From NCBI GenBank assembly GCA_045653945.1, contig JAZOML010000003.1, positions 7,270-71,269 of the forward strand: DNA of 64,000 bases, in the 5' to 3' direction. This document shows positions 4,925 through 63,484 of this stretch, in pieces (within the stretch, counting starts at the first letter, position 1; each line of letters starts with the position of its first letter). The DNA is from Eubacteriales bacterium. GTDB taxonomy: Bacteria; Bacillota; Clostridia; Oscillospirales; CAG-272. Position numbers and translations under genes: made by a program. A model generated the notes under the pieces. It did no database searches and was not told where the DNA came from. It saw only the letters and a program-made list of their open reading frames with translations.

Positions 4925-5032
4925 TATTCTTTTACACCGATAGACCGCAAGCGCAAAGCTTAAAGCTTAGAAAAAACAACGGGCCTATCGGTGTAAAAGA
5001 GTTCTTTGCGCCACTTTCTTGCAAGAAAGTGG
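4925..5032. repeat. intergenic mosaic repeat (hairpin-core family)
   Basis: Long inverted repeat cttttacaccgatag (4929-4943) / ctatcggtgtaaaag (4985-4999), then tail agagttctttgcg, then core hairpin ccactttcttgcaagaaagtgg (5011-5032). Confidence 0.8.
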
Positions 5033-5095
5033 TAAAAATAAAAGCTCGATTTTCCCCATTTACCGCTTAAATATAAAAAATGGAGGAATTTTAAA

Positions 5096-7282
5096 ATGTT
5101 TGAGAAATTCAGAAGCTTCGAGTATGAGCTCGCAGGCAAAAAGCTCGTTATCGAAACGGGCAAAATGGCAGGACTTGCAAACGGTGCTTGTCTTGTAAAG
5201 CTCGGCGAAACCAGCGTTCTTGCAACCGCAACCGCAAGTGCAAAGCCCCGCGACGGCATCGATTTTCTTCCCCTTTCGGTAGACTTCGACGCACGTCTTT
5301 ATGCAGCAGGTAAGATCCCCGGCTCTTTCAACAAGAGAGAGGGCAGACCGACTGAAAAGTCTATTCTTTCTTCAAGAGTTATTGATAGACCTATCCGTCC
5401 CCTTTTCCCCAAGGATCTCCGCAATGACGTTGCAATCAACCTTCTTATCCTTTCGGTAGAGCCCGACTGTGAGCCTGAGGTTGCAGCAATGATCGGTGCA
5501 TCTATTGCACTTTCTATTTCCGATATTCCGTGGAACGGACCTATCGCAGGTCTTCACGTAGGACTTGTTGACGGCGAAATCGTTCTCAACCCGAACTACG
5601 AGCAGAGAAAGGTAAGCGACCTTGAGCTTACCGTAGCAGGCTCTCTTGAAAAGGTCGTTATGATAGAGGCAGGCGCAAAGGAAGTTCCCGATGACGTTAT
5701 GTTCGACGCCATTATGAAGGCTCACGAGGAAATCAAGAAGCTTTGCGCATTTATCAACGGCATCGTTGCTGAAATCGGCAAGCCCAAATTCGATTACCCC
5801 TCTTGCGAGCTTGACCACGATATGTTCGATAAGGTTTTCGCATTTTGCGAGAAGGACCTTATGTTCGCTCTTGACACCGATGACAAAACCGTCCGTGATG
5901 CTCGTGTAGAGCCTATCAAGGACGCTATCGTTGAAAAGTTCAGCGAGGAATACCCCGAAATCGGTGCTATAATGGAAGAGCTTATCTACAAGCTCCAGAA
6001 GAAGATTGTTCGCCGTTGGCTGCTCGTTGACAAGAAGCGTGTTGACGGAAGAAGAATGGACCAAATCCGTCCCCTCGATGCTCAGGTTGAGCTTATCCCG
6101 AGAGTTCACGGAAGCGGTATGTTCACCAGAGGTCAGACTCAGGTTCTTACCATCTGTACGCTCGGCAGTCTTTCCGAGGCTCAGCTCCTTGACGATATAG
6201 ACGACCAAACCGAAAAGAGATATATCCACCACTACAATATGCCCGGCTTCTCCACAGGCGAGGCTAAGGCTGCTCGTACCCCCGGTAGACGTGAAATCGG
6301 TCACGGTGCTCTTGCTGAAAGATCACTTCTCCCCGTACTTCCCAGCCCCGAGGAGTTCCCCTACACCATCCGCTGTGTATCCGAGGTTATCTCCTCTAAC
6401 GGCTCTACCTCTCAGGCATCCGTTTGCGGCTCCACCCTTGCTCTTATGGACGCAGGCGTTCCGATAACTGCTCCCGTTGCAGGTATTTCCTGCGGACTTA
6501 TCACCGAGGAGGACGGCTCTTGGTCTACTATGATAGACATTCAGGGACTTGAGGACTTCTACGGCGATATGGACTTCAAGGTAGCAGGTACTCACAAGGG
6601 TATCACCTCTATTCAGATGGACCTCAAGATTGACGGTCTTACCCCCGAAATCATCAAAGAGGCTTTCGCAGTAACCCATAAGGGAAGAGATTACATCATC
6701 GACGAATATATCCTCAAGGCTATCCCCGGTCCTCGTTGCGAGGTTTCCAAGTACGCTCCCAAGATGACCACCTTCCAGATTGACCCCGACAAGATTCGTG
6801 AGGTTATCGGTAAGGGCGGTAGCGTAATTCAGAAGATTTGTGCAGACAGCGGCGCAAAGGTTGACATCAACGACGACGGTATCATTACTATCGCGGCAGT
6901 TAACGGCGAGAGCGCAGCTATTGCTAAGGCTATGATCGATGCTATCGTATTCGAGCCTGTTGTTGGCGAAATCTACGACGGTAAGGTTGTTAAAATCCTT
7001 GCAAGCAAGGATAAACCCACCGAGGACGTAGGCTGCTTCGTTGAATACGCCCCCGGCAAAGAGGGTATGGTTCACATCTCCAAGATTTGCGCAAAGAGAA
7101 TCAACAAGGTAACCGATGCAGGTATCGACGTTGGCTCCGAGGTTAAGGTTAAGTATCTTGGTCTTGACAAGAAGGGCCGTATGGATTTCTCTATCAAGGA
7201 CGCAACCGCTCCCGACACCTTAGTTCAGGAAGCCGAGGTTGAGGAAAAGCATTATAGCAGACCTCTCCGTAAGCCCGAGTAA
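5096..7282 (+). CDS. pnp: polyribonucleotide nucleotidyltransferase (PNPase)
   Basis: 728 aa. Two RNase PH domains, KH and S1 (GKGGSVIQKI..., GEIYDGKVVKI...). RBS GGAGG. Confidence 0.97.
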   Translation: MFEKFRSFEYELAGKKLVIETGKMAGLANGACLVKLGETSVLATATASAKPRDGIDFLPLSVDFDARLYAAGKIPGSFNKREGRPTEKSILSSRVIDRPIRPLFPKDLRNDVAINLLILSVEPDCEPEVAAMIGASIALSISDIPWNGPIAGLHVGLVDGEIVLNPNYEQRKVSDLELTVAGSLEKVVMIEAGAKEVPDDVMFDAIMKAHEEIKKLCAFINGIVAEIGKPKFDYPSCELDHDMFDKVFAFCEKDLMFALDTDDKTVRDARVEPIKDAIVEKFSEEYPEIGAIMEELIYKLQKKIVRRWLLVDKKRVDGRRMDQIRPLDAQVELIPRVHGSGMFTRGQTQVLTICTLGSLSEAQLLDDIDDQTEKRYIHHYNMPGFSTGEAKAARTPGRREIGHGALAERSLLPVLPSPEEFPYTIRCVSEVISSNGSTSQASVCGSTLALMDAGVPITAPVAGISCGLITEEDGSWSTMIDIQGLEDFYGDMDFKVAGTHKGITSIQMDLKIDGLTPEIIKEAFAVTHKGRDYIIDEYILKAIPGPRCEVSKYAPKMTTFQIDPDKIREVIGKGGSVIQKICADSGAKVDINDDGIITIAAVNGESAAIAKAMIDAIVFEPVVGEIYDGKVVKILASKDKPTEDVGCFVEYAPGKEGMVHISKICAKRINKVTDAGIDVGSEVKVKYLGLDKKGRMDFSIKDATAPDTLVQEAEVEEKHYSRPLRKPE

Positions 7283-7375
7283 GCAAGCGCCTACGGGCAA
7301 AAGGCGATGCGAGCTTTAGTGCGAACATATCAAACATCGCTAAGCCGGGTTCAGATTAAATATTAAACAAAAATT

Positions 7376-7404
7376 GACCGACCTTGATAGGTCGGTCTTT
7401 TTTT
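7376..7404 (+). terminator. rho-independent terminator after pnp
   Basis: gaccgacc-ttgata-ggtcggtc followed by ttttttt. Confidence 0.7.
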
Positions 7405-7520
7405 GGAAAACACCAAATTAAAATAAGTTTGTTTTTTCGTATATTATGTTCTTTTTTTATTATGGGTATAATAGTATAATAAATATAGAAATACCCATTT
7501 AATAAGGAGCATAGCACAAA

Positions 7521-8168: not shown

Positions 8169-8181
8169 ATGAACACAGCGA

Positions 8182-8248: not shown

Positions 8249-8428
8249 ATGGTTTATCGGATATTCGTAGTGCCTGCAGGGATAAGGCGGCACGAGCTTT
8301 GGGCGTTCAAATCGAATGCCGCTAATCAAGCTTTGTATAAGACTTGTTGCATAAAATCAAGAAAGGACGGCGAAAAGAAGGTAAGGAACAGCTTAAAACT
8401 TACTGCTCGGTTTTGGGTACGGTTGTTA

Positions 8429-8467
8429 AGAAGTTCTTTTGCTTTCTTTTCTTTCAAGAAAAGAAAG
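8429..8467 (+). repeat. hairpin-core repeat abutting the start codon
   Basis: Tail aagaagttcttttg plus hairpin ctttcttttctt-tc-aagaaaagaaag (8442-8467). Confidence 0.75.
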
Positions 8468-13046: not shown

Positions 13047-13320
13047 GAAAATATAAGTCCCGAGCACCGTAAACGGTACTCGGGACGAAATTACTATTTC
13101 CGTGTTGCCACCCGATTTTAACAGCCGAAGCCGTCCTCTTTGCGTACCTTCATACGCCGCGCTACGATAACGGTGCGCTCTCCGTCAGGGAATACTGCAA
13201 TTTTCTGCCCCACCCTCGAAAGTCCATTTACGCCCTCTCCCCTTGCCGCGCTTCCACCAAGCGCGCGTGCTCTCTGTAAGGTTTTAGAGTACGCTACTAC
13301 TCTTTCTCATCGGTTTACAT
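13047..13320 (-). promoter_or_regulatory. T-box riboswitch leader, tryptophan specifier (UGG)
   Basis: On the minus strand the elements are:
- GA/AGUA motifs CCGATGAGAAAGAGTAGTA.
- AG bulge AGAGAG and distal loop GGTGGAA.
- Specifier TGG-A (13223-13226) directly 5' of CTTTC, which pairs with GAAAG.
- T-box GGGTGGCAACACG (13101-13117).
- Terminator hairpin 13057-13086 plus a U tract. Confidence 0.85.
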
Positions 13321-13374: not shown

Positions 13375-14022
13375 TTATTTTTGGCGTTTGGCTGCCTCGT
13401 TTGCGGAATATACGCAGCCGCAAAAGTCCTGACGGTACAGTCCGTATTTTTCCGAAAGCTCGCAGGAGCGTTTATATCCGTTCTTTTTCTTAAAATCGGA
13501 ATAAAGGTAAGGGACTCCGTATTTTTCCGAAAGCTCCGCTCCGATTTCATTTAGCACCTGTGCGTTTTTGTGAGGACTTATGCTAAGCGTTGTGCAAAAG
13601 TAGTCATAGTCGCCCTCCTTTGCCAAAACCGCCGTTCTTTCAAGACGCAGGCGGTAGCACTCAAAGCATCTTGCTCCGCCCTCAGGGATATCCTCTTTTC
13701 CCTTTGCAATTTCGTAAAAATCGCTTGGCGTGTACGGTAAAACGACTACCTTTATATTCTCCGCGCCCTCTATTCTTTCCTCTTTCATAGCGTAAGCAAG
13801 ACGAACAAGCTCTTTGTCGCGTTTATTATATTCGTCCTCAGGAAAAATGTTCGGGTTATAGTAAAGAAGAGTAATATCAAAGTATGGACAAAGGTATTCA
13901 AGCACGTAGGTCGAGCAAGGAGCACAGCAGGCGTGCAAAAGCAGGCGGGGGCGAATACCGCACCCGTCTATCTCTTTCAGCTTATTTTCAAGCAATCTGT
14001 TGTAATTTATTTTTTCGTTCAT
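13375..14022 (-). CDS. queH: epoxyqueuosine reductase QueH (DUF208)
   Basis: LLLHACCAPCSTYVLEYL...YYNPNI...CFECYRLRL...DFCGC cysteine pattern. 215 aa. Confidence 0.85.
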   Translation of the reverse strand: MNEKINYNRLLENKLKEIDGCGIRPRLLLHACCAPCSTYVLEYLCPYFDITLLYYNPNIFPEDEYNKRDKELVRLAYAMKEERIEGAENIKVVVLPYTPSDFYEIAKGKEDIPEGGARCFECYRLRLERTAVLAKEGDYDYFCTTLSISPHKNAQVLNEIGAELSEKYGVPYLYSDFKKKNGYKRSCELSEKYGLYRQDFCGCVYSANEAAKRQK

Positions 14023-14723
14023 ACTATGCTCTCGTAGAAGCTCTCTACCGCCTTAATATACTCAAGCGGATTGCTTTTAACTATATTGTGTCCGCCCTCA
14101 ACTGTAACAAGGCGCGCTCCCTTGATGCTATCCGCTATAAGCTGACTGTGTTCGGGCTTTATCGCATCTCGGCTACCGACAAGAACGAGCGTAGGTATAT
14201 CAAGCTCCGCCAAATCATCGGGAGAAATGCTCGGCTCGTGTACCATAAGCGCAACCATTTCATAGGTATCCCTTGCCTTTACGCTATCAGGATTTTTGCG
14301 ATAGGCTCTTTTTGCCCTTTTGTAGCTTTTCATTATCCACTTTTGGTCCTTACGCTCAAGCCCGTCGGGGAACATATTTGCGCCGTTAAGCACCATAGAG
14401 TTAACCCTCTCGGGATACTTCATAGCAAAAAGCATTGCAATATTACCGCCGTCGCTGTATCCTATGATATCCGCCTTTTCAATACCGAGCGTATCTATAA
14501 ATTCCTTTAAATCATCGGCAAACTGAACGAGCGTAAAAGGCTTATCTCCCTTAGGGGTACAGCCGTGCCCTCTCGTATCGACGTTTATTACCCTGCGAGT
14601 CTTTCCAAAATGATAGGTTACATAGAAAAAGCTGGAACTGTTCCCGCCGTTTCCGTGAAGCAAAATCATCGGCACTCCGCCGTTTTCCGCACCCACGTCT
14701 GTATAAAAAAGCTTGGTATCCAT
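14019..14723 (-). CDS. alpha/beta-fold hydrolase
   Basis: MDTKLFYTDVGAENGGVPMILLHGNGGNS...IGYSDGGNIAM (nucleophile elbow GxSxG). ATG at 14723 has RBS GAGGAA. The track extension to 14792 reads through a repeat hairpin. Stop overlaps the queH start (ATGA). Confidence 0.8.
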   Translation of the reverse strand: MDTKLFYTDVGAENGGVPMILLHGNGGNSSSFFYVTYHFGKTRRVINVDTRGHGCTPKGDKPFTLVQFADDLKEFIDTLGIEKADIIGYSDGGNIAMLFAMKYPERVNSMVLNGANMFPDGLERKDQKWIMKSYKRAKRAYRKNPDSVKARDTYEMVALMVHEPSISPDDLAELDIPTLVLVGSRDAIKPEHSQLIADSIKGARLVTVEGGHNIVKSNPLEYIKAVESFYESIV

Positions 14724-14744
14724 AAATTCCTCACAAAAGATTTT

Positions 14745-14790
14745 GTAGCTTTCTTGAAAGAAAGCTACGCAAAGAACTTCTTTTCCACCC
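14745..14790 (+). repeat. hairpin-core repeat
   Basis: gtagctttcttgaaagaaagctac (14745-14768) plus gcaaagaacttcttttccaccc. Confidence 0.8.
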
Positions 14791-14929
14791 ATACCATAAA
14801 GATATAGGTGGAAAAGAAATGTTTTTTATAATTTATTTCGAGAAAACACATACCCTTTTGCAAGGAATATATGTATATCACTCTATTTTAACAAATAACC
14901 GTTAACCACATACCGCAAGATAGTTGCTC

Positions 14930-16805: not shown

Positions 16806-17076
16806 ATAAAACAAGCCCTCTGCAATTTCTTGCAGAGGGCGTAGTATACGCGGTTCCACCTCTTTTTCACTCTACTCTTACAAGTAAAGCCTCACCAAGC
16901 GCTCCCAAAAAATCGGGGTTACGCTTTGACCTCATAACGGTAGTCAGCCGTCGCCACTTTTCATAGCGCCGCTCAGCAAATGTATTCACCAAATTTCCCC
17001 GCACTGTCTTGCACCCACCGACAGCTCTCTGCAACGGCAAAAAACGGCTACTTTTTTTGCGTCCCTGCGTTTTTAC
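16806..17076 (-). promoter_or_regulatory. T-box riboswitch leader (amino-acid identity unresolved)
   Basis: On the minus strand the elements are:
- AGTA box, AGAGAG bulge and distal loop GGTGCAA.
- Candidate specifier TAC-A directly 5' of TTTGC, which pairs with GCAAA.
- T-box AGGTGGAACCGCG.
- Terminator gccctctgcaa-gaaa-ttgcagagggc (16815-16840) plus a U tract. Confidence 0.8.
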
Positions 17077-22275: not shown

Positions 22276-22356
22276 ATTAAGCTCCTTTTTTTGTTTTTTC
22301 GCTTTCTTGAAAGAAAGCTTGCAAAGAACTTTTGTACTGTTTTATTATGTGTAGAT

Positions 22357-22480
22357 ATTCCGTCGCCGTTTTACTGTGTAAAACGCTCTCGTTCTACTTC
22401 GTTTAAAAGGCTCACGCGAACAAGTTCCCATCGCCTTTTTTAGCTCGTATCACTGCCACGCACACGTGGTCGACGAAATT
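22357..22480 (-). repeat. structured repeat domain, subtype alpha (copy S1, 5' of hprK)
   Basis: Sense strand reads aatttcgtcgacc-[ccacg tgtg cgtgg]-cagtgat-[aaaaggc..gaac tt gttc..gcctttt]-aaacgaagtag-[cgtttta cacag taaaacg]-gcgacggaat. Confidence 0.8.
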
Positions 22481-24059: not shown

Positions 24060-24265
24060 TTTCCACATTTCTTGAAAGAAACCGTACTTTTCTTGAAAGA
24101 AAAGTAGGCAAAAGAACTTCTATTACCACGCCACCATGTTGTGTGGTGGAAATTTTACACCAAATCAATTATATGCCCGTCGGTGCTTACCGACTCTTGA
24201 AAGAAAAGTAGGCAAAAGAACTTCTCTTACTACGCCGCAGTGTTTTGTAGTGGAAATTTTAGGCG
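24060..24265 (+). repeat. two tandem hairpin-core mosaic repeats
   Basis: tacttttcttgaaagaaaagta (24085-24106), then ggcaaaagaacttctattaccacgccacc...aaattttacaccaaatcaattatatgc. A second truncated copy follows: ctcttgaaagaaaagtaggcaaaagaacttctcttactacgcc... Confidence 0.85.
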
Positions 24266-26229: not shown

Positions 26230-26297
26230 AGGGGTTTTATCTTCTTTCTTGAAAGAAAGAAGCAAAGAACTTTTGTATAATTTTATGCGGTGTAAGG
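26230..26297 (-). repeat. tail plus core hairpin of the mosaic repeat, 5' of mnmG
   Basis: cttctttcttgaaagaaagaag (26241-26262) plus caaagaacttttgtataattttatgcggtgtaaggg. Confidence 0.8.
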
Positions 26298-26413
26298 GTT
26301 TCGTCGCGTTTGGCTTGCCAAACAAAACGTTCTGTGTTGATAAAAGACTCGTGTGAGCAAGCTCTCGCCGTCTTTTTATCTACACATCACTGCAACTGCG
26401 TTGCCGACGAAAC
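26298..26413 (-). repeat. structured repeat domain, subtype alpha (copy S3, 5' of mnmG)
   Basis: Sense strand reads gtttcgtcg-[gcaac gca gttgc]-agtgat-[aaaagac..gagc tt gctc..gtctttt]-[gtttggc aa gccaaac]-gcgacgaaac. Confidence 0.8.
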
Positions 26414-26446
26414 TGTTCAAGTGAAGTGCAATTAATTAGAGATTAT

Positions 26447-27022: not shown

Positions 27023-27039
27023 ATCTGCACCGTGCGGGA

Positions 27040-27170
27040 GCACTATACAGAAGTCTTTGCTAAGCTTTCTTCAGAAAGCGAAAAAAACAACAAAGGCTCA
27101 AAACTTACATAAAACACCACGGTGGCGTGGCTACAAAAGTTTTTGCCGAGGCTTTTTTCAAAAAGCCGGA
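27040..27170 (+). repeat. repeat tails with two core hairpins
   Basis: cagaagtctttgc-ta-a-gctttcttcagaaagc (hairpin 27064-27079), then caccacggtggcgtggctacaaaagtttttgc-cgaggcttttttcaaaaagccgg (27146-27168). Confidence 0.8.
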
Positions 27171-27179: not shown

Positions 27180-27959
27180 CTAAGAAAGCAGCGAAATGCA
27201 GTCCTCTCTTGGTGCGGCGGCGAGGAAATCAAGATGCGCATCGGTGCGACGCATTTCCATTGAAACCTCGTGAACGGCAAGGTCGGGGGTGTTGTTTTCG
27301 GGGCTGATGTGAGCAAGAAGAACTCGTTTCACCCCTGTTTTAGCGAGGCGTGAAACGAATTTTGCGCAATCGACGTTTGAGGTATGTCCGCTATCGCCCA
27401 TTATGCGATATTTGAGCACCTGACTGTACGGCCCACAGATGAGCATAGCCTCGTCGTAGTTTGCCTCGGTTATGACGTTTTCGCAGTCCTTGAAGAATTC
27501 AAAAAGCTCATCGGTTGGCTTTCCTGCATCGGTGCAGATACCAAGCGAAACTCCACCTGAAATTCGGTAAGCAACACAAGCGGCGCTGTCGTGTCGGACA
27601 GGCATAGCCTCAACCGTTAAGTCGCCCACGTCTATACAAAAATCGGTATCCGTTACCGTAAAATCGTTTTTGTTATCAAAGCCCTTCCCTCTTATGTAGC
27701 TGATATATGAGGGCTGAGTTATGTAGACGGGTATATTATAGCTTTTCATAAAGGTCGGCAGCCCCGCAACGTGGTCGCTGTGCTCGTGAGTAAGGAAAAC
27801 AGCGGACACGTCGGCAAGATTTACACCAAAATCCGCAAGAGCGTTCTTGACTCTTTTGCAGGACAAACCGAAGTCTATAAGAATGTGAGTTGCGCCCGAG
27901 CTTACAAGCGTACAGTTAGCCTTTGAGCCTGAGGCGAGTGATATAATTTGCTTTTGCAT
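27180..27959 (-). CDS. MBL-fold metallo-hydrolase (YycJ/WalJ-like)
   Basis: LIDFG...FLTHEHSDHVAG metallo-beta-lactamase motif. Sits next to rlmH as yycJ does in Bacillus. Confidence 0.85.
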   Translation of the reverse strand: MQKQIISLASGSKANCTLVSSGATHILIDFGLSCKRVKNALADFGVNLADVSAVFLTHEHSDHVAGLPTFMKSYNIPVYITQPSYISYIRGKGFDNKNDFTVTDTDFCIDVGDLTVEAMPVRHDSAACVAYRISGGVSLGICTDAGKPTDELFEFFKDCENVITEANYDEAMLICGPYSQVLKYRIMGDSGHTSNVDCAKFVSRLAKTGVKRVLLAHISPENNTPDLAVHEVSMEMRRTDAHLDFLAAAPREDCISLLS

Positions 27960-38048: not shown

Positions 38049-39302
38049 ATGAAAAACGACAAAAAAAGCTCCACAAAGGAGAGCAAATCAACACTTATTC
38101 CCAAAAGCAGGATAAAAAGCGAGGACCTTCCTTTTAATAGAGAACTGGCAATAGAGCATCAAGTTCACGGAAATAAAATGACGCACGACGAAGTGGTCGG
38201 TGGCGGTCATACAATCGACGTTTTACAGGGGCAGGGAAGTCAGTTTTCGGATTTTGTATTCGGAAAAAGCGGCTCGCAACCACCCTGCAGTAACAAAGAG
38301 AAGCCCGAAAACGGACATGCAACGCCCAATTATGAGGGTACTGTCGGCGGCGCGGACAAGGTTGGCACAACGCCCAATTACGAGGGCACTGTCGGCGGTG
38401 CGGACAAGGTTGGCGCAACGCCAAATTACGAGGGTACCGTTGGCAAAAAGAGCAGCGACGCAGATAAAAAAAGCAATTCATACGCAATCAAAAGGGAACA
38501 CGCAGAGCCTCTACGCGACAATTTCGGACAAGTACCGCCGGCTGTTAACAGTGTTTACGGAAACACGGATATAAGCAGGCGCACCTACGGAGATTTTAGC
38601 GAAAGCAATTTAAAAAACAGCACCGCTACCGACAACAAAGGCGGCAACAAGGATGAAAAAAACAGCGAAAGCACAGAAAAAAACAAGAAAAAAGACCGCG
38701 CAGTAACGGTAAAAAGCAACAAAAAGCTTATAAAAACCATTGTGATAGCAGGGCAAATCGAGGGACACACTCAGTTACCGCAGGAGCAAAAGGCAACGAA
38801 GTATGAGGAGCTTATCCCACAGCTGATTGAGATAGAGGAAACCGACGAAATCGGCGGACTTTTACTGATTTTGAACACCGTCGGCGGCGACGTCGAAGCA
38901 GGTCTTGCCCTATCCGAGCTTATCGCAGGAATGAAAAAGCCAACCGCTTCCCTTGTGCTCGGCGGTGGGCATTCGATAGGAGTGCCACTCGCAGTTTCGA
39001 CAAAGCGTTCATTTATTGTACCAAGCGCAACTATGACGTTACACCCCGTCCGTGTTACGGGTATGGTTCTCAGCGCTCCGCAAACCTACGTTTATCTTAA
39101 CAATATGCAGGAGCGCATAATAAATTTCGTTTGTTCGCACAGCAGCATAAAGCGGGAGCGTTTCAGTGCCCTTATGCTCGCAAGAGAGGAAATGTCAACA
39201 GATCTCGGTTCGGTTCTCGACGGCAAAAAGGCGGTAGATGAGGGGCTTATAGATACGTTGGGAACACTCAGCGATGCAATGGAGTATCTATCCTCTTTCT
39301 AA
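38049..39302 (+). CDS. ClpP/TepA-like serine protease domain with long disordered N-terminal extension
   Basis: C-terminal part LLILNTVGGDVEAGLALSELIAGMKKPTASLVLGGGHSIGVPLAV...ATMTLHPVR. N-terminal roughly 230 aa is low complexity, with three tandem TPNYEGTVGGADKVG repeats. ATG at 38049 has RBS AAGGAG. Confidence 0.75.
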   Translation: MKNDKKSSTKESKSTLIPKSRIKSEDLPFNRELAIEHQVHGNKMTHDEVVGGGHTIDVLQGQGSQFSDFVFGKSGSQPPCSNKEKPENGHATPNYEGTVGGADKVGTTPNYEGTVGGADKVGATPNYEGTVGKKSSDADKKSNSYAIKREHAEPLRDNFGQVPPAVNSVYGNTDISRRTYGDFSESNLKNSTATDNKGGNKDEKNSESTEKNKKKDRAVTVKSNKKLIKTIVIAGQIEGHTQLPQEQKATKYEELIPQLIEIEETDEIGGLLLILNTVGGDVEAGLALSELIAGMKKPTASLVLGGGHSIGVPLAVSTKRSFIVPSATMTLHPVRVTGMVLSAPQTYVYLNNMQERIINFVCSHSSIKRERFSALMLAREEMSTDLGSVLDGKKAVDEGLIDTLGTLSDAMEYLSSF

Positions 39303-39438
39303 CCGTACTTTTCTTGTAAGAAAAGTACGGTTAGCACCAGCAAGCGAATAATTGATATAGTGTAAATTTAAACTGTATATCACGGCGGCGTAGTAAGAGA
39401 AGTTCTTTTGCCTACTTTTCTTACAAGAAAAGTACGGT
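39303..39438 (+). repeat. full-length mosaic repeat flanked by two core hairpins
   Basis: ccgtacttttcttgtaagaaaagtacgg, then gcgaataattgatatagtgtaaatttaaactgtatatcacggcggcgtagtaagagaagttcttttgc, then ctacttttcttacaagaaaagtacgg. Confidence 0.85.
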
Positions 39439-51132: not shown

Positions 51133-51165
51133 AAGCACACTGCATTTTTGCGGTGTGCTTTTTCT
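51133..51165 (+). terminator. rho-independent terminator
   Basis: aagcacac-tgcatttttgcg-gtgtgctt followed by ttt. Confidence 0.55.
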
Positions 51166-51175: not shown

Positions 51176-51416
51176 GCTTTCTGAAGAAAGCTTGGCAAAG
51201 ACTTCTCTTACCACGCATCCGTGATATATAGTTTAAATTTTGCACTGTATCAATTATTTGCCAGCGGGTGCTACCCGCCGCTACCTTGATATGTAGTTTA
51301 AATTTTGCACTTTATCAATTATTTGCCAGCGGGTGCTACCCGCCGCCACCGTGATATGTAGTTTAAATTTTACACCAAATGGATTGTATGCCATCGGGTG
51401 CTACCCGCTCGGTGCT
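51176..51416 (+). repeat. core hairpin plus three tandem 65-bp units of the mosaic repeat
   Basis: gctttctgaagaaagc (51176-51191), then ttggcaaagacttctcttaccacgc. The unit tgatat.tagtttaaatttt.cac...atcaattatttgccagcgggtgctacccgccgc.acc starts at 51222, 51287 and 51352. Each unit carries the mini-hairpin gcgggt-gct-acccgc. Confidence 0.85.
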
Positions 51417-52872: not shown

Positions 52873-53051
52873 CCGGCTTTTCGAGAAAAGCCTCGGCACC
52901 GTTCTTTTCTTGAAAGAAAAGAAGGCAAAAGAACTTCTCTTACAACGCATCAGTGGTGTGTTGTGGAAGTTTTGAGCTTTGTTGTATACAGTTCTATTGA
53001 AAGGAGTTGAGAGTCTTTCAGAAGTTTTTGTCCACTTTTTTTAAAAAGTGG
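52873..53051 (+). repeat. mosaic repeat block with three core hairpins
   Basis: ccggcttttcgagaaaagcctcgg (52873-52896), ttcttttcttgaaagaaaagaa (52902-52923), then ggcaaaagaacttctcttacaacgc...gtggaagttttgagctttgttgtatacagttctattgaaaggagttgagagtctttcagaagtttttg, then ccactttttttaaaaagtgg (53032-53051). A copy of the roughly 130-nt internal segment lies at 56200-56345. Confidence 0.85.
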
Positions 53052-56023: not shown

Positions 56024-56183
56024 AGTCGTACTCCCTCCGTTTCTAATTTCGTCCGTTAACGCAACCATAATCGGCTACATCAACGCATAAGTTTGCATCG
56101 TAATCAACATTATATACTATTTTATAACTATTTGTCAACCCATTTCAAAATTTTTACAAATTCTTAACAAGTATCCCCCCCCC

Positions 56184-56392
56184 GCTTTTCGAGAAAAGCT
56201 TGGCAAAAGCTTCTCTTACCACGCCACCGTGATGTAGTGTGGAAGTTTTGAGCTTTGTTCTATTTAAATACAGTGTAATTATTTAAAGATTACTCGTTGT
56301 TGTATACAGTTCTTTTGAAAGGAGTTGAGAGTCTTTCAGAAGTCTTTGCCAAGCTTTCTTCAGAAAGCGGGAAAGCGGGAAAGCGGGGGAAA
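56184..56392 (+). repeat. mosaic repeat block upstream of dnaA
   Basis: gcttttcgagaaaagc (56184-56199), then ttggcaaaagcttctcttaccacgccaccgtgat...gtggaagttttgagctttgtt[40-nt insert]ttgtatacagttcttttgaaaggagttgagagtctttcagaagtctttgcc, then a-gctttcttcagaaagc (hairpin 56353-56368), then gaaagcgg three times. Confidence 0.85.
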
Positions 56393-58210: not shown

Positions 58211-58341
58211 CAAATAATTGATTTATTTTAAAAATTAAACTTAACACGAAGTAAGCGTAGTAAGAGAAGTCTTTGCTACGACGTTTGCAAAGCAAACTCG
58301 CAAGTTCGACGAAGACGAACACTAGCTTATCTTCAGAAAGC
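58211..58341 (+). repeat. mosaic repeat immediately 5' of dnaN
   Basis: caaataattgatttattttaaaaattaaactt...gcgtagtaagagaagtctttgc...gcttatcttcagaaagc, followed by gtgaaaaaATG. Confidence 0.8.
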
Positions 58342-58349: not shown

Positions 58350-59495
58350 ATGAAGATAAAAGTAGATAAAAGTGAATTTGAAAAGGCGATAGCGCCTATT
58401 ATGGGAGCTGTTTCGGGAAGAAACAACACCATACCAGCAGTTGAAGGAATACTCCTTACAACTCACGGGGATACCGAGGTAACGCTAACCTCATTTGATA
58501 TAGAAAAGGGATACAGAATAACTATATCTGCAAAGGTAGTTGAGCCCGGTAGCTATATAATAAACGGAAACAGACTTAAAAATATTGTAAACGCAATGCC
58601 AAACGGTGAGTTAACCGTTCATATAGATACTAAGATGACTGTAAAAATTTCGGGCGGCAAGTCAGAGTTTGAGTTAAGCGCAATGGACGGTGCGGATTTT
58701 CCGACACTACCTGAATTTAAGAGCGACCTGAAATTTACCGTAAATCAGGGAACACTTCTTGATATGATAAACCGAACAAAGTTTGCTATTGCAAAAAGCG
58801 ACGAAAGAAAGGCACTTTCAGGAGCATTCTTTGAATTTAAAGAAAATGAACTGAAGATAGTTGCTTGTGATGGAAACAGACTTGCTGTAAGAGAGCAAAA
58901 ATGTGAGGTAACATCAGTAACGGACAGAAAACCTGAAATAAGCTTTATTCTGCCCGGAAAAACCATTGAAGAAGTAACAAAAATTCTTAAAAAAGACGAA
59001 GAAAACGTTACTATTACAATAACAAGAAGAAACTGTGTATTTGAATGCTGCGGACTTCTGTTCTTCTCAAGACTTATTGAGGGTAACTATCTTGAATATA
59101 ACAAATTCATTCCTCAAAACAGTAAATATGTTGTAGAGGTTGATACAAACGAATTCCTTGAAAGCCTGTATAGAGCATTCCTTGTAACCGAGGATAGAGC
59201 TCTTGGTCAAACAAAAAGTTTTGTAAAATGTAATTTCAGCGAGGGAATGCTTAACATATCGTCTGTATCGGTAAACGGCAGAGTTTTTGATGAAATAACC
59301 ATTGAGGGAATGAACGGAGAGCTTGAAATAGGATTTTCCTGTAAATATCTTATAGACGCTCTTTCTGTTTGCGGAACTGAAAAGGTTATCTGTGAGCTTA
59401 ATACACCGTATACCTGTATGGTAATAAAGCCTGCCGAAAAAAGTGATAACGAGGACTTCCTTTACCTTGTTCTGCCCGTCAGAATGAAGGGTTAA
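58350..59495 (+). CDS. dnaN: DNA polymerase III beta sliding clamp
   Basis: 381 aa. Three-domain clamp pattern and conserved position after dnaA. Confidence 0.95.
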   Translation: MKIKVDKSEFEKAIAPIMGAVSGRNNTIPAVEGILLTTHGDTEVTLTSFDIEKGYRITISAKVVEPGSYIINGNRLKNIVNAMPNGELTVHIDTKMTVKISGGKSEFELSAMDGADFPTLPEFKSDLKFTVNQGTLLDMINRTKFAIAKSDERKALSGAFFEFKENELKIVACDGNRLAVREQKCEVTSVTDRKPEISFILPGKTIEEVTKILKKDEENVTITITRRNCVFECCGLLFFSRLIEGNYLEYNKFIPQNSKYVVEVDTNEFLESLYRAFLVTEDRALGQTKSFVKCNFSEGMLNISSVSVNGRVFDEITIEGMNGELEIGFSCKYLIDALSVCGTEKVICELNTPYTCMVIKPAEKSDNEDFLYLVLPVRMKG

Positions 59496-60558: not shown

Positions 60559-60564
60559 TTTTTA

Positions 60565-60757: not shown

Positions 60758-61006
60758 ATGTTTATAACAATTTCGCCTGAAAAGGTTATAAAAACCGATG
60801 AAATTGTCGGAATATTTGACCTTGACACTGCATCGCAAACCAAAACTGCAAGGGATTACTTTAAAAATGCCGAAAAAAACGGCAGAGTAAAAATGACAGG
60901 CACAGAGCTTCCTAAATCATTTGTAGTAATGATAGACGGCACAGTGTATCTGAGCCAATATTCAGCAAAAATTTTAACTGCACGAACAAAATACGTGATT
61001 AGGTAG
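60758..61006 (+). CDS. remB: DUF370 protein (RemB/YaaB-like)
   Basis: 82 aa. IVGIFDLD motif. Lies between recF and gyrB, as yaaB/remB does in Bacillus. Confidence 0.7.
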   Translation: MFITISPEKVIKTDEIVGIFDLDTASQTKTARDYFKNAEKNGRVKMTGTELPKSFVVMIDGTVYLSQYSAKILTARTKYVIR

Positions 61007-61013
61007 GGTTTCC

Positions 61014-61431
61014 GGCTTTCTTGTAAGAAAGCCTCGCCAAAAGTCGGGGCCGCCCGACAGCGGTAACGGCTACGCCCAAGAAGTTCTAATCGTATTAACA
61101 CTCATACTGCTGTGTGTTCACACAGTAAGTTAGAGTTTGCATAAAGTTTAAACAATTTCGTCGACCGCGTGTGCGCGGCGGTGATACAAGTGAAAAAAGG
61201 CGTTGGGAGCCAAGGCTCACAAAAGCCATTTAAACGAAGTAGCACAAGGCGTTTTGTAAAGCAAAACGGCGACGAAATCCCTACACCAAACCAAATGCCA
61301 CAAAAGTTTTTGCCGAGGCTTTTTTCAAAAAGCCGGAAAAAAAGCCGAAAAAAAATAAAAAGTAAAAAATTTAAATTAAATACGAAGTAAGCGGGGCAAG
61401 AGAAGTCTTTGCTAAGCTTTCTTCAGAAAGC
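61014..61431 (+). repeat. 420-bp non-coding block of mosaic repeats 5' of gyrB
   Basis: Core hairpins ggctttcttgtaagaaagcc (61014-61033), ccgaggcttttttcaaaaagccgg (61313-61336) and gctttcttcagaaagc (61416-61431). Structured domain S5 lies in between. The block ends gtggaaaaATG. Confidence 0.85.
61155..61278 (+). repeat. structured repeat domain, subtype alpha (copy S5, 5' of gyrB)
   Basis: atttcgtcgacc-[ccgcg tgtg cgcgg]-cggtgat-[..gagcc aa ggctc..]-aaacgaagtagc-[cgttttg taaag caaaacg]-gcgacgaaat. Confidence 0.8.
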
Positions 61432-61439
61432 GTGGAAAA

Positions 61440-63353
61440 ATGGAAGAAAACAAAACACCACAGTATGACGAAAACCAAATACAAGTCCTTGAAGGACTTG
61501 AAGCGGTAAGAAAAAGACCGGGTATGTATATCGGTACAACCTCGGAAAGAGGACTCCACCACCTCGTATATGAGATAGTGGATAACTCAATCGACGAGGC
61601 TATTGCAGGCTACTGCACCGAGATAACGGTTACACTTCATAAGGACGGCAGCTGCTCCGTTCAGGATAACGGACGCGGAATACCGACAAGTACACATAAA
61701 ACAGGCAGACCGACACCTGAGGTTGTATTTACGGTTCTCCACGCGGGCGGTAAGTTCGGCGGCGGCGGATACGTAATATCGGGCGGACTTCACGGAGTTG
61801 GAGCATCGGTAGTTAACGCACTTTCCGAGTGGCTTTACTACGAGGACTGCCGCGACGGTCAGGTATACGGACAAAAATTTGCCCGCGGTAAGATAGTTGA
61901 AGACTACCACTATATAGGAACAAGAGAAAAAAGCGGACTTTATGTACGCTTTATGCCCGACGGACAAATTTTTGAAAGTCTTGACTTCAAATATAACGAG
62001 CTTATGGTAAGAATGCGTGAGCAGGCGTTCCTTAACGCAGGTATCCGCATCATATTCCGTGATGAGCGCCCCGAGGAGCCCGTTGAAAATAACCTCTACT
62101 ACGAGGGCGGTATCGTTTCCTTTGTTTCGCAGATAACAGCGGCCAAAAAAGACGATAAGCCTATGAGCGAGGACGTCGTATATATGAAGGCGCAAAACGG
62201 CGTTAACACCGCCGAGGTCGCACTCCAATACAACGACGGATATTCTACCGATATATATAGCTTTGCTAATAACATAAGAACAACCGAGGGCGGTATGCAC
62301 GAAATGGGCTTTAAAGAGGCTCTGCACAGCGCAATAAACACCTACGGCAAAAAGTACGGACTTATCAAAGAGGGTGAGGAGCTTAAGGCAGAGGACACCC
62401 GTGAGGGACTTGTTGCTATCATTTCGGTTAAGCTTCAGGACGCACAATTTGAGGGACAGACCAAAACCAAGCTCGGAAACTCCGAGATGAGAGGTATGGT
62501 AAGAGAGCTTGTAAAAGAGAAGCTCGGCGAATACCTTGAAGAAAATAAAGCGGTTGCAAGAGCAATATTTGATAAAACTCTTGAAGCGGCAAGAGCAAGA
62601 GAGGCGGCAAGAAAGGCGCGCGATGCGGCAAGAAGAAAGAGTCCGTTTGGCGGCACCTCGCTCCCCGGAAAGCTTTGGGACTGCCAAGAAAAGAGAGTCG
62701 AGGTTACAGAGCTTTACCTTGTTGAGGGTAACTCGGCAGGAGGCTCTGCAAAGGGCGGACGTGATAGCCGTTACCAAGCAATCCTTCCTCTTAGAGGTAA
62801 GGTTCTTAACGTTGAAAAGAGCCGCTCCTCAAAGGTTTACGACAACGAATCCCTGCTCCCGATAATCCAGTCGGTAGGATGCGGAGTAGGACCTGAATTT
62901 GATATTGAAAAGCTGCGCTACGGCAAGATAATCATAATGGCGGACGCGGACGTTGACGGCTCACATATCCAGATACTTCTGCTGACCTTCTTCTACCGCC
63001 ATATGAAGCCCCTTATTGAACAGGGACATATCTATCTTGCAATGCCACCGCTGTTTAAGATAAGCAAGGGCAAGACGGTACGCTACGCATACTCCGACGA
63101 GGAAAGAGATGCTATAATTGCTGAGCTTGGCGACAGATGTGAGGCTGAGCGATACAAAGGTCTTGGTGAAATGGACCCCGAGCAGCTCTGGGAAACCACT
63201 ATGGACCCGATGCGCCGTACCTTAAAGCAGGTAACAATCGAGGACGCAATCATTTGTGATGAGGCGTTTACGCTTCTTATGGGTGATGAGGTTGAGCCTC
63301 GCCGAGATTTCATAGAGAAAAACGCAAAGTACGTTTCTAATCTTGATATTTAA
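61440..63353 (+). CDS. gyrB: DNA gyrase subunit B
   Basis: 637 aa. GLEAVRKRPGMYIG, GGLHGVGASVVNALS, EGNSAGGSAK, PLRGKVLNVE, IMADADVDGSHI. Confidence 0.97.
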   Translation: MEENKTPQYDENQIQVLEGLEAVRKRPGMYIGTTSERGLHHLVYEIVDNSIDEAIAGYCTEITVTLHKDGSCSVQDNGRGIPTSTHKTGRPTPEVVFTVLHAGGKFGGGGYVISGGLHGVGASVVNALSEWLYYEDCRDGQVYGQKFARGKIVEDYHYIGTREKSGLYVRFMPDGQIFESLDFKYNELMVRMREQAFLNAGIRIIFRDERPEEPVENNLYYEGGIVSFVSQITAAKKDDKPMSEDVVYMKAQNGVNTAEVALQYNDGYSTDIYSFANNIRTTEGGMHEMGFKEALHSAINTYGKKYGLIKEGEELKAEDTREGLVAIISVKLQDAQFEGQTKTKLGNSEMRGMVRELVKEKLGEYLEENKAVARAIFDKTLEAARAREAARKARDAARRKSPFGGTSLPGKLWDCQEKRVEVTELYLVEGNSAGGSAKGGRDSRYQAILPLRGKVLNVEKSRSSKVYDNESLLPIIQSVGCGVGPEFDIEKLRYGKIIIMADADVDGSHIQILLLTFFYRHMKPLIEQGHIYLAMPPLFKISKGKTVRYAYSDEERDAIIAELGDRCEAERYKGLGEMDPEQLWETTMDPMRRTLKQVTIEDAIICDEAFTLLMGDEVEPRRDFIEKNAKYVSNLDI

Positions 63354-63378
63354 GTTAGCCTTGTGCTTGCTGTTTTTC

Positions 63379-63484
63379 GCTACTTTCTTGAAAGAAAGTA
63401 GCCAAAGAACTTTTCTTACAACCGCAGCCGTGAAAAGTGTGCAGGTTTTAAAATAAGTTTTTTGGGGCCACGGTTGTAAGAAAA
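63379..63484 (+). repeat. hairpin-core repeat with long inverted repeat, 3' of gyrB
   Basis: gctactttcttgaaagaaagtagc (63379-63402), then caaagaacttttcttacaaccg ... cggttgtaagaaaa. Confidence 0.8.

Follow-up and report, generated by a model that had tools for sequence, protein, structure and literature searches.

A short repeat fills the intergenic regions of the window

The stretch of DNA analyzed here (the window, 64,000 nt) is filled with a short, noncoding dispersed repeat of uncultured gut Clostridia, copies of which lie around hprK, mnmG, dnaA, dnaN, recF, gyrB, and many other genes (Table 1). Sixteen window sequences match TTTCTTGAAAGAAA with at most one mismatch vs. 0.19 expected, a number that none of 100 shuffles reached. 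A rule-based scan found 29 perfect hairpins consisting of a pyrimidine run, 2 nt, and a purine run, 22 of which have a conserved tail; two further copies are imperfect, one interrupted (before dnaN) and one truncated (24185-24260). This bears out an earlier note on this DNA, which had described a very dense core-hairpin family of at least 25 copies. Of 95 copies that an nhmmer profile detected in the 1.7-Mb genome (~89% coding), 18 lie in the window. Intergenic copies make up 93 of these 95 (binomial p ~2e-87), and the two "coding" overlaps are N-terminal extensions made by the ORF caller. The genome-wide census proposed earlier thus reveals an intergenic bias, together with a sense bias of full-length copies in tandem gene pairs (31 sense vs. 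8). Copies form tandem, nested, and head-to-head arrays, and contig ends fall at copies. These findings show that the repeat is a real mosaic intergenic family.

Table 1. Copies of the repeat and associated features in the window
Feature	Class	Position	Strand	Context
Tail + hairpin	tail TTCTTT/arm AAGAAA, loop GC	4990..5030	+	65 nt before start of 5096..7282
Tail + hairpin	TTCTTTT/AAGAAAA	8425..8466	+	ends 0-2 nt before GTG (8467) of PfkB-AraC gene
Full-length	TCTTT/AGAAA	12889..12995	-	between T-box leader (13078-13319, -) and trpB-like CDS; hairpin end 8 nt before ATG at 12883
Tail + hairpin	TTCTTT/AAGAAA	14748..14798	-	read through by ORF 14019..14792 (false N-terminal extension)
Tail + hairpin	TTCTTT/AAGAAA	15000..15038	+	faces stop codon of AMP-binding gene, 17 nt off
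Full-length	TTTTT/AAAAA	16708..16796	-	between T-box leader (16832-17074, -) and AMP-binding CDS; then GGGGAAAGCGGAGGAGAATATG
Short	TTCTTT/AAGAAA	22299..22335	-	25 nt before hprK start; preceded by ~120-nt structured domain X copy (22340-22480)
Short	CTTTT/GAAAA	22690..22726	+	
Cluster	TTCTTTT/AAGAAAA (full-length copy)	24066..24264	-	tail-less hairpin 24068-24081; full-length copy 24088-24176; second copy with truncated hairpin 24185-24264
Short	TTCTTT/AAGAAA	26241..26277	-	44 nt before mnmG start; preceded by domain X (26280-26430)
Tandem pair	TCTTT/AGAAA (27064-27079); TTTTT/AAAAA (27151-27166)	27035..27169	+	faces stop codon of 27180..27959
Tail-less hairpin, then full-length	TTCTTTT/AAGAAAA (full-length copy)	39305..39434	+	hairpin 39307-39326, 3 nt past stop codon of 38049..39302; copy 39350-39434 with TTGATA..TATATC box
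Full-length	TCTTT/AGAAA	51170..51408	-	65-nt upstream module (GC hairpin + GGCAAATAATTGAT..TTTAAA..ATATCACGG) three times in tandem; adjoins real terminator 51133-51160
Full-length + tail-less hairpin	TTCTTTT/AAGAAAA (52903-52922)	52874..52977	-	neighboring tail-less hairpin 52876-52891
Short	TTTTT/AAAAA	53020..53052	+	
Full-length	CTTTT/GAAAA	56181..56253	-	left flank of AT-rich origin region upstream of dnaA
Short	TCTTT/AGAAA	56338..56371	+	right side of same origin region; then (GGGAAAGC)n
Full-length		58220..58341	+	before dnaN; ~46-nt extra hairpin segment (58279-58324) within tail-hairpin linker; hairpin end 8 nt before ATG at 58350
Type II	TTCTTT/AAGAAA	60564..60660	-	long upstream hairpin GTAAGAAAA../..TTTTCTTAC; faces recF stop codon, 7 nt off
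Tail-less or degenerate hairpin		61013..61034	.	7 nt past stop codon of RemA-like gene
Composite array	TTTTT/AAAAA (short); TCTTT/AGAAA (long)	61155..61434	+	domain X 61155-61278; short copy 61299-61336; long copy 61363-61434, end 8 nt before gyrB ATG (61440)
Type II	TTCTTT/AAGAAA	63381..63490	-	28 nt past gyrB stop codon, antisense to gyrB

As claimed earlier, the hairpin abuts gene starts, and the 3' end of the repeat lies in the ribosome-binding region of several genes. When remeasured, the distances to the start codon were as previously given for the trpB-like (PALP), dnaN, and gyrB genes (8 nt each) and for hprK (25 nt). For PfkB+AraC, 0-2 nt agrees with the 0 nt given before; with the GTG at 8467 as start, the Pfam model is matched from residue 3 onward. 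The upstream positions at the AMP-binding gene (close to the start) and mnmG stand, with distances corrected from 17 to 19 nt and from 42 to 44 nt, respectively. Rfam T-box leaders were found at both places where a copy had been described as wedged between a T-box and a CDS. False N-terminal extensions pointed out at 8344, 16748, 27043, and 52950 were trimmed by the gene caller, while at 14792 translation more likely begins at an ATG farther downstream that has a GAGGA Shine-Dalgarno.

The family occurs in many gut Clostridia

The family extends beyond the source genome: numerous other MAGs of gut Clostridia contain its exact 30-mer core, in at least 116 stretches altogether. Comparison with sister genomes, suggested earlier, showed 0-98 copies per genome within the genus at sites that are mostly nonorthologous among congeners, while 28 other genera sampled have almost no copies. 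Matches in other genomes are intergenic in 93/94 cases, with 48 oriented toward stop codons and 37 toward start codons, and the proteins flanking them are unrelated. Copy positions around gyrB vary between species; two relatives (G009 and G011) also carry a copy at the place of 63381..63490 after gyrB, the G011 copy being of another class. Empty-site/filled-site pairs and target duplications could not be delimited, as sequence divergence from relatives is too great and Logan contigs end at repeats. Identical 30-mers in distant MAGs could mean function rather than recent spread. A search for a mobilizing enzyme, limited to Y1 transposases, found none in 13 genus genomes.

The tail mirrors the hairpin

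The invariant core of the repeat folds back within a single strand. Read 5' to 3', it starts with the purine box RARAAG, continues with 4-8 pyrimidines (the tail) and a G, and goes on to a linker of 3-8 nt, a pyrimidine arm, a loop of 2-4 nt, and a purine arm. The linker sometimes holds an extra hairpin, at the same insertion point in several species. Two features recorded before were found again: stem extensions that vary yet remain complementary (GC/GC, TAC/GTA, CCAC/GTGG, GGC/GCC, and TTC/GAA) and a conserved tail beside the hairpin, (A)AGAGAAGT(T/C)CTTT(T)GC. The new finding, missed by the earlier note, is that this tail (AAG-Yn-G) complements the purine arm of the hairpin in parallel orientation, mirrors the pyrimidine arm, and changes in step with both.

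This rule is followed by 77/77 anchored copies of six classes in the source genome. Relatives add T6/A6, T7/A7, TTTCTTT, CTTTTTTT, and CTTTTT, with 11 length and sequence classes following the rule (including T4-T7, TCTTT/AGAAA, CTTTT/GAAAA, and TTCTTT/AAGAAA). Across eight genomes, the rule is kept at 271 of 294 family-like loci, with ~8% violating it, vs. 65.6 ± 6.1 (maximum 89) in 2,000 shuffles, which represents about eleven independent events and not hundreds, the classes being old subfamilies common to several species. At loci bearing a C or G, it is kept at 105/116 vs. 26.6 ± 4.3 in shuffles. An unbiased pattern scan of other genomes, which admitted all eight combinations of tail Y, arm Y, and arm R, returned 94/94 concordant matches, with only TTA (74) and CCG (20) occurring.

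We reasoned through Watson-Crick and direct-repeat readings of the tail, and neither explains TCTTT/AGAAA, TTCTTT/AAGAAA, or TTCTTTT/AAGAAAA. To our knowledge, a mirror repeat can be read only by Hoogsteen (triple-helix) pairing.

Because the tail mirrors the pyrimidine arm, it could occupy the major groove, running parallel to the purine arm, which makes the core a potential intrastrand triplex whose putative triads are T.A-T plus one isolated C+.G-C. In the ITxF classification, the predicted structure is of class IV for the tail strand and of class II for its complement. We infer from this layout that the triplex may actually form. The tail tracts are T-rich with at most one isolated C. That pyrimidine-motif triplexes tolerate such tracts at neutral pH is established triplex chemistry. 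This composition is also described as tolerated in published work (PMC4666352). Against a triplex, the tract is short (5-8 triads), and C+ requires protonation. By eye, pairing of the linker (GCC or GCGG) with the 3' flank (GGG or CCGT) is also conceivable in many copies, and would give a longer hairpin with no linker left for the tail to reach the groove.

The tail strand is the folded strand

Of the two strands, the one with the tail folds better in 60/87 (G000), 25/27 (G009), and 7/7 (G011) cases. In the upstream hairpin (hairpin 1), 11 of 18 pairs have changed on both sides with pairing kept, and G.U/U.G is conserved at two neighboring positions, which identifies the tail-bearing strand as the one that folds. 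The sense bias and the conserved G.U pairs agree no less well with a role in RNA than with one in DNA.

Relation to known repeats

The earlier likening to REP/BIME or Correia elements is apt for genomic behavior, which is dense, dispersed, mosaic, and intergenic, and resembles BOX as well. Membership is another matter. REP has a Y1/RAYT transposase and a GTAG-type unit, whereas the window family has neither, Y1/RAYT being absent from the 13 genus genomes. A Correia or MITE assignment is not shown since neither terminal inverted repeats nor target duplications were definable. Rfam has no family matching the repeat. A mirror tail plus arm is the layout required by a three-stranded helix, which points to an A/T-rich BoxC/intrastrand-triplex type and not to REP, Correia, or MITE. 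The nearest known kind is Escherichia coli BoxC/PIT, a little-understood type of which this is a new A/T-rich variant. BoxC/PIT/TMECO repeats are intergenic, without strand bias, arranged in inverted pairs, and strain variable in copy number (PMC4666352). The family in the window is a mosaic DNA repeat that is dispersed and nonautonomous, occurs in gut Clostridia, and has a core that could form an intrastrand triplex.

Possible role of the repeat

The best explanation, to which we give a probability of about 0.5, is that the single-stranded DNA form of this mosaic repeat, with its one-strand fold-back core laid out as a triplex, is what is recognized and kept. The inherited-palindrome alternative, by which an ordinary REP/MITE-type element without triple helix took its tail along with the hairpin from a few master copies, the mirror being inherited or a coincidental low-complexity similarity, is unlikely. 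It would account for classes that are subfamilies common to several species, for the short tract, for the ~8% of exceptional loci, and for the 7/11 classes that are easily slipping T/A runs, alone or with a single terminal C/G (T4-T7, CTTTT, CTTTTT, and CTTTTTTT). However, all 11 classes keep the rule, four of them with an internal C at differing positions (TCTTT, TTCTTT, TTCTTTT, and TTTCTTT), four homopolymer lengths are altered jointly in all three tracts, and none of the 94 matches is a mixed combination although the pattern allowed them. Moreover, neither replication nor repair is known to turn a sequence into its own mirror image. Very improbable is a portable promoter, operator, or terminator cassette, in which TTGATA-N17-TATAT would start transcription or the palindrome would serve as a protein operator or terminator. 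Many copies do adjoin gene starts or ends, and the promoter-like motif noticed earlier is present as TTGAT(A/T)-N17-TATAT(A/C), but in a subset of long copies only; many others hold CCACNACACA instead, and the second (-10-like) hexamer lacks the final T. The suggested promoter supply did not survive a standard sigma-70 scan, with 22 promoters vs. 21 expected and none within repeats. An intrinsic terminator was rejected since neither hairpin is followed by a U-tract in either orientation and true terminators adjoin copies, while compensated stem variation argues for a folded strand and not a duplex operator.

A role in RNA is possible, and we entertain it tentatively. The tail strand would be transcribed, in a 5' UTR, by read-through, or from a weak promoter of its own, and would form hairpin 1 and a U.A-U/C+.G-C triple-helix hairpin that shields mRNA from exonucleases and/or gates a purine arm doubling as Shine-Dalgarno, with dispersal being secondary. 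In H-type pseudoknots, loop 1/stem 2 triples have the Hoogsteen strand 5' of the Watson-Crick pyrimidine strand, a topology shared by the core. Sense transcription of the top strand is certain in the two T-box leaders and before dnaN, gyrB, and the trpB-like gene, and the purine arm AGAAAG occupies the Shine-Dalgarno place of congeners. The better folding of the top strand, the compensatory and G.U pairs of hairpin 1, the optional linker hairpin, typical of structured RNAs, and the sense bias of full-length copies point the same way. RNA can form pyrimidine-motif triplexes, although not purine-motif ones (PMC4666352). However, in about half of the cases in other genomes, and in most of those in G009, the copy faces a stop codon and its tail strand runs antisense to the neighboring gene, where tail-strand transcription is unexpected; the repeat has no conserved promoter, its distance to start codons is variable, and no Rfam family matches.

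Under the single-stranded DNA reading, the folded single strand would be the form recognized and preserved, most likely as tail-strand DNA during replication or mobilization by a putative enzyme, and selection on it would keep the three tracts in register across repeated changes. We infer both DNA, rather than RNA, as the selected form and this mode of spread, in which the element would move among genes in both orientations and give rise to tandem, nested, and head-to-head arrays. A sense landing just 5' of a gene would lead to transcription of the element, and its purine arm and G-rich flank may then become the ribosome-binding region, as before dnaN, gyrB, the trpB-like gene, and PfkB-AraC. 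The ATG-proximal copy of gyrB is missing in congeners, where an ordinary AGAAAGGA Shine-Dalgarno occupies the site.

An intergenic mosaic repeat around the replication origin

The genome under study (G000) is a 1.70-Mb metagenome-assembled genome (MAG) of 66 contigs, from an uncultured gut lineage of Clostridia/Eubacteriales whose GyrB is 75 to 84% identical to that of the closest species representatives. The window (C3:7270-71269, on contig C3) includes the origin region, with dnaA, dnaN, recF, a RemA-like gene, and gyrB confirmed by Pfam, and its GC skew turns near 56 kb. An earlier note, made from the sequence alone, had described a dense family of hairpin-bearing repeats here and had proposed that it is REP/BIME-, Correia-, or MITE-like; the observation is confirmed, and the interpretation is partly supported. 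With at most one mismatch, the motif TTTCTTGAAAGAAA occurs 16 times in the window versus 0.19 expected, and direct-repeat families connect about 20 intergenic sites. The direct-repeat output of the window is dominated by a run of genes for leucine-rich-repeat proteins, whose 69-nt periodic internal repeats are unrelated to the family. Using an nhmmer profile built from an alignment of nine clear copies and iterated over the whole genome, we found 95 copies. As had been claimed, they are noncoding almost without exception, since 93 of the 95 are intergenic in this genome-wide census (binomial p ~2e-87; genes called with a simple codon-usage caller, 1567 genes, 89% coding). In the window, rule-based scanning detected 29 perfect hairpins made of a pyrimidine run, a loop, and a purine run, 22 of which carry the conserved tail. 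Classes and rules were counted with anchored parsers, the generic hairpin scan having been dropped as too noisy.

A full-length copy consists of 1) an optional small GC hairpin and GGCAAATAAYTGAT, 2) an A/T-rich stretch AAAATTTAAAC, 3) hairpin 1, a long 18-bp stem in type II copies and in the congeners G009 and G011 but short (CCACGGTGGCGTGG or GGGCGGGAGCCC) in the majority of copies here, 4) the purine box GTAAGAGAAG, 5) the pyrimidine tail with a G after it, 6) a linker of 3 to 8 nt, 7) hairpin 2, with a pyrimidine arm, a loop of 2 to 4 nt, and a purine arm, and 8) a G-rich or A-rich flank that in many copies is continuous with a start codon. Short copies comprise parts 4 to 8 only; GAGAAGTCTTTGCCAAGCTTTCTTCAGAAAGCGG is an example of the core, i.e., tail plus hairpin. 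The 65-nt upstream module is tandemly triplicated at one site, and modules therefore amplify independently. At one constant point, the linker before hairpin 2 can hold an extra hairpin, as seen before dnaN, in three copies of G009, and in the G011 copy at the 3' end of gyrB, which fits a loop that needs only to span the helix.

Copies are also combined into larger assemblies. A recurrent array, in which a structured block that we call domain X is followed by a short copy, a long copy, and ATG, is found ahead of gyrB and no fewer than three other genes. Domain X spans ~120 nt, is closed by TTTCGTCG...CGACGAAA, contains three inner stems, and has no Rfam match. The stretch covering domain X and both repeat copies folds with a z-score of -2.1. 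Two congeners, G010 (stretches L091-L097) and G002 (L108-L110), have a minimal unit, GGGAAG-T5-GCCAAGC-T6-C-A5-GC, in tandem arrays of three to four units, and head-to-head pairs in some congeners share one common hairpin with a tail on either side, forming a long palindrome.

Coordinates of the features discussed (window positions unless a contig is named)
Feature	Position	Description
Start codon of PfkB-AraC gene	8467	GTG; fits the Pfam model from residue 3
Domain X	22340-22480 (-)	directly 5' of a short copy
Domain X	26280-26430 (-)	directly 5' of a short copy
Domain X	61155-61278 (+)	directly 5' of a short copy; further examples exist
Domain X with both repeat copies	61140-61445	306 nt
Leucine-rich-repeat genes	39615-50312	gene run with internal repeats
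Upstream module, triplicated	51214-51408	GC hairpin GCGGGTAGCACCCGC and TGGCAAATAATTGAT..TTTAAA..ATATCACGG; three tandem units, 65-nt period
Divergent pair of copies	56181-56371	immediately left of the putative unwinding region, very rich in AT, that lies upstream of dnaA; short (GGGAAAGC)n run next to the second copy
Linker with extra hairpin	58279-58324	nested 46-nt insert before dnaN
Two-dsRBD protein gene	G000:C4:96557-97752	adjoins rnc

The tail is a mirror image of the hairpin

When all the copies of the genome are aligned, the tail is altered wherever the hairpin is altered. Six classes, named by tail and purine arm, are present: TCTTT/AGAAA, TTTTT/AAAAA, CTTTT/GAAAA, TTCTTT/AAGAAA, TTCTTTT/AAGAAAA, and TTTT/AAAA. 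Tail and purine arm are complementary in parallel, not in the antiparallel sense of a reverse complement, which makes the tail a mirror image of the pyrimidine arm. This mirror rule is kept in 77/77 anchored copies. Sampling ~330 kb from seven relatives added T6/A6, T7/A7, TTTCTTT/AAAGAAA, and CTTTTTTT/GAAAAAAA, and other gut MAGs yielded a further class, CTTTTT/GAAAAA.

We quantified the rule with a parser that is blind to it, requiring only an AAG anchor, a pyrimidine run, a G, and a hairpin downstream. The rule holds in 271 of 294 family-like loci; 2000 shuffles gave 65.6 ± 6.1 and at most 89. When only loci whose tracts contain C or G are counted, 105/116 keep it versus 26.6 ± 4.3 in shuffles. 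An independent sample was drawn with a degenerate 30-mer permitting all eight combinations at a variable tail position and the two variable arm positions, which had matches in at least 116 stretches from a large number of other gut MAGs. The 94 distinct matches were T/T/A (74) or C/C/G (20), with no mixed combination. Because the classes are old subfamilies, the independent events number about eleven rather than hundreds. All 11 classes match the rule, four of them with an internal C at different positions, and the tracts are 4 to 8 nt long, A/T-rich, and carry at most one C/G each.

Several simpler accounts of the tail fail. Watson-Crick pairing of CTTT(T) with (A)AAAG of the purine arm accounts only for the part 3' of the C, and such a reading breaks down for TCTTT, TTCTTT, and TTCTTTT. 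Origin as a direct repeat is suggested by AAGCTTTT, which occurs twice in the CTTTT class, but the GC clamp brings this about by coincidence, and the reading fails in the other classes. A switch in which the purine box AAGAGAAG pairs with the pyrimidine arm would involve only GAAG/CUUC (4 bp), and covariation is absent. We know of no copying process that yields mirror images. The rule is reproduced by Hoogsteen pairing, in which a pyrimidine third strand runs parallel to the purine strand (T.A-T and C+.G-C triples). At neutral pH, a pyrimidine-motif triplex tolerates a T-rich tract with at most one isolated C. These findings show that the family is constrained to hold three tracts in triplex register on one strand.

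The strand carrying the tail is the conserved fold

Taking as the tail strand the one on which the tail lies 5' of hairpin 2, we compared its predicted folding with that of its complement. The tail strand folds better in 60/87 copies of the genome under study, 25/27 of G009, and 7/7 of G011; it is not the better folder in G010 and G002, where head-to-head arrays confound the comparison. For hairpin 1, RNAalifold predicted 18 pairs from 25 type II copies, with compensatory double changes in 11. Two adjacent positions are kept as U.G and G.U in most copies. Since these would be C.A mismatches on the other strand, the single-stranded tail strand is the conserved form.

Copies abut start codons; promoter and terminator roles are not supported

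The distances from hairpin to start codon agree within 2 nt with those first reported: 8 nt each for the trpB-like gene, dnaN, and gyrB, 0 to 2 nt for PfkB-AraC, 19 nt for the AMP-binding gene, 25 nt for hprK, and 44 nt for mnmG. Rfam likewise bore out both cases in which a copy was said to be wedged between a T-box terminator and the regulated gene. Copies occur in both orientations relative to genes, 57 to 35 in the genome under study and 37 to 48 in other genomes, and the full-length copies of the former show a sense bias of 31 to 8. On contig C3, counting both sides of the origin, the tail strand is in the leading-strand sense in 19/25 copies; replication and transcription are inseparable there because gene orientation has the same bias. 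Sense copies in T-box leaders and 5' untranslated regions (UTRs) are certainly transcribed, and in such 5' UTRs the Shine-Dalgarno position is taken by the purine arm AGAAAG and its G-rich flank. We infer that, however it arose, the element now influences the start of translation at dnaN, gyrB, and other genes.

The promoter-like box noticed at the outset is present in a subset of copies, but it is not conserved among copies, and the hexamer resembling a -10 has no T at its last position. A conventional sigma-70 scan (-35 and -10 hexamers, A2 and T6 of the -10, 16 to 18 nt spacing) revealed no promoter excess and no site inside the repeats, which argues against the suggestion that they supply promoters. 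Neither hairpin is followed by a T-run in either orientation, as an intrinsic terminator would be; a terminator scan found separate true terminators adjoining copies. Rfam returned only T-box and tRNA at gathering score, with nothing meaningful on the repeats at E up to 5-10, and the core sequences were not found in the literature searched. In a single metatranscriptome run (n = 1), 5% of gyrB words were recovered, only conserved pieces from other organisms, and none over the repeats.

The repeat is a BoxC/PIT-like element

The closest known elements are BoxC/PIT (potential intrastrand triplex)/TMECO, intergenic repeats of E. coli and other Proteobacteria that show no strand bias, occur in inverted pairs, differ in copy number between strains, have no associated transposase, and form a triplex in vitro, their function being unknown (Holder et al. 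2015, PMC4666352; Hoyne et al. 2000, cited there). The Clostridia family is likewise a short intergenic repeat in which three successive tracts of one strand lie in the register of an intramolecular triple helix, found in either orientation and in inverted pairs, with strongly different copy numbers between close relatives and no associated transposase. The tail/arm register of those 271 loci and 11 classes comes with loops of 2-4 nt and 3-8 nt, and the repeat is multi-copy, intergenic, and without strand bias relative to genes. BoxC clusters near the origin in E. coli K-12, and the Clostridia repeat is on the origin contig. However, it has no homology to the TMECO consensus CCCTCNCCC..GGGNGAGGG..GGGNGAGGG, its tracts being T/A-rich. 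BoxC is G/C-rich and nearly invariant, with 9-nt tracts analyzed as a class II purine-motif DNA triplex, whereas the Clostridia repeat is A/T-rich, with tracts of 4 to 8 nt, at least 11 covarying classes, and a pyrimidine third strand 5' of the hairpin, which corresponds to class IV (class II on the complement). It is also a mosaic with further hairpins, often lies in the 5' UTR up to the start codon, and resides in Clostridia rather than Proteobacteria. Judged by sequence, it is the same kind of element as BoxC/PIT but not the same family.

Other families are less similar. Like REP/BIME/REPIN elements, the repeat forms dense intergenic palindromes, mosaics, and arrays in alternating orientation, with compensatory stem changes and strand-specific mismatches. 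The REP/Correia/MITE reading stands as far as a dispersed intergenic palindromic mosaic goes, but membership of REP fails on the defining partner of REPs, the RAYT transposase of Enterobacteria and Pseudomonas. In a search for a mobilizing partner that covered Y1 transposases genome-wide and protein neighbors in 80 loci of other genomes, no Y1/RAYT transposase (PF01797) was matched in any of 13 genus genomes, although controls responded, and the proteins flanking those loci belong to no recurrent family. The alignments show no conserved 5' tetranucleotide of the GTAG type, and REPs have no mirror tail. BOX and RUP of Streptococcus pneumoniae and Correia/NEMIS of Neisseria are cotranscribed with their neighbors and can change expression and mRNA stability. 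BOX (boxA-boxB-boxC, in a Gram-positive host), RUP, and Correia (in a pathogen) are similarly modular, non-autonomous, and intergenic, but the Clostridia repeat has no sequence similarity to them and no IHF-type site, and triplex register is missing from those families as described. Neither terminal inverted repeats nor TA duplication could be defined for it: no recurrent TIR or TSD is visible in the flanks of copies, whose ends could not be fixed, and a possible TA duplication is seen only around the nested 46-nt insert before dnaN.

Single-stranded DNA or RNA as the selected form

We propose that the entity recognized would be the folded tail strand, i.e., the hairpin with its Hoogsteen third strand, and that selection would act primarily on single-stranded DNA during replication or mobilization. 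We give this reading a probability of about one-half, because half of the copies sit where no transcript of the tail strand is expected, and because the closest known elements, BoxC/PIT, are DNA repeats. That the selected form is RNA is a less probable alternative. In its favor, G.U pairs are conserved, the full-length copies of the genome under study are biased toward the sense orientation, and sense copies in T-box leaders and 5' UTRs are certainly transcribed; that same half of the copies speaks against it. Major-groove triple helices occur in RNA, as in the PAN/MALAT1 ENE, telomerase, and the SAM-II/preQ1-II pseudoknots, where U.A-U triples are broken by a single C+.G-C and, in H-type pseudoknots, the Watson-Crick pyrimidine strand has the Hoogsteen strand on its 5' side. 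The Clostridia repeat shares this composition and topology; however, those are single-copy functional RNAs with experimentally solved structures, whereas its RNA fold is a prediction, and its hairpin is closed by a 2-4 nt loop, being neither a pseudoknot nor an A-tail clamp. Only tentatively do we suggest that the transcribed tail strand might form a genuine RNA triple-helix hairpin (five to eight U.A-U triples and one C+.G-C, stacked on hairpin 1), and that this structure might be the selected function of the family, as a portable nuclease-resistant cap, possibly sensitive to pH or Mg, stabilizing mRNAs and gating the Shine-Dalgarno-like purine arm. If true, bacteria would have a widespread class of RNA triple helices, backed by natural three-way covariation and spread by a mobile repeat.

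Intrastrand-triplex repeats such as BoxC/PIT have been known for 25 years, with little evidence so far that the triplex matters. The Clostridia family supplies what BoxC lacks, many variant classes whose three tracts change together, which is comparative evidence of selection for Hoogsteen pairing in living bacteria. Its main value is that this covariation makes the in vivo relevance of intrastrand triplexes directly testable in a tractable system: a short A/T-rich repeat that gut Clostridia carry in abundance and that is directly joined to the ribosome-binding sites of the essential dnaN and gyrB. The action of such folds could be tested in DNA (replication, mobilization, and genome instability) or RNA (stability and translation).

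Spread and distribution of the family

A covariance model of the core detected the family in 11/12 congeners, with 0 to 98 copies each, and almost no copies turned up in the 28 other genera that were sampled from this taxonomic family and order. An identical core is nevertheless found in many other gut Clostridia MAGs. In other genomes, 93/94 copies are intergenic, 48 facing a stop codon and 37 a start codon. The copy next to the gyrB ATG is missing in congeners, which have an ordinary AGAAAGGA Shine-Dalgarno instead, while a copy just 3' of the gyrB stop codon is common to the genome under study, G009, and G011, the last being of a different class. These comparisons describe what appears to be a non-autonomous, dispersed repeat subject to gain and loss. 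Carriage by phages has little to recommend it, with only six exact matches among 2.9 million viral contigs. Contigs assigned to Bacteroides and Planctomycetota MAGs (L176 and L191-L192) also contain exact matches to the core; they may be mis-binned or may reflect real spread outside Clostridia.

Contigs of several assemblies terminate in copies, and k-mer contigs of public runs (Logan) break at them, leaving no informative joints for empty sites. Since the repeats break assemblies and produce false N-terminal extensions in these MAGs, they should be masked or annotated.

A gene adjoining rnc encodes a protein with two dsRBDs, present in 13/13 genus genomes and 0/28 other genera. It is not a requirement for the repeat, as ~26/30 other repeat-bearing genomes have only an ordinary single dsRBD.

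Copies are clumped in the genome under study: C3 has 26, C50 has 12, and C16 has 10, and there are none at all on C33 or the 125-kb C4. Comparing C3, C50, C16, and C9 against C4, C33, and C25, we found that repeat density tracks coding GC3 and tetranucleotide PC1, with a GC3 of 0.47-0.50 on repeat-rich contigs versus 0.36-0.43 on repeat-free ones. We think that the bin is not chimeric because InfB, from repeat-free C33, and GyrB, from C3, give an identical ranking of relatives, with G011 nearest and G008 farthest. The density pattern resembles a gradient inside one genome, possibly from origin-proximal toward distal regions.
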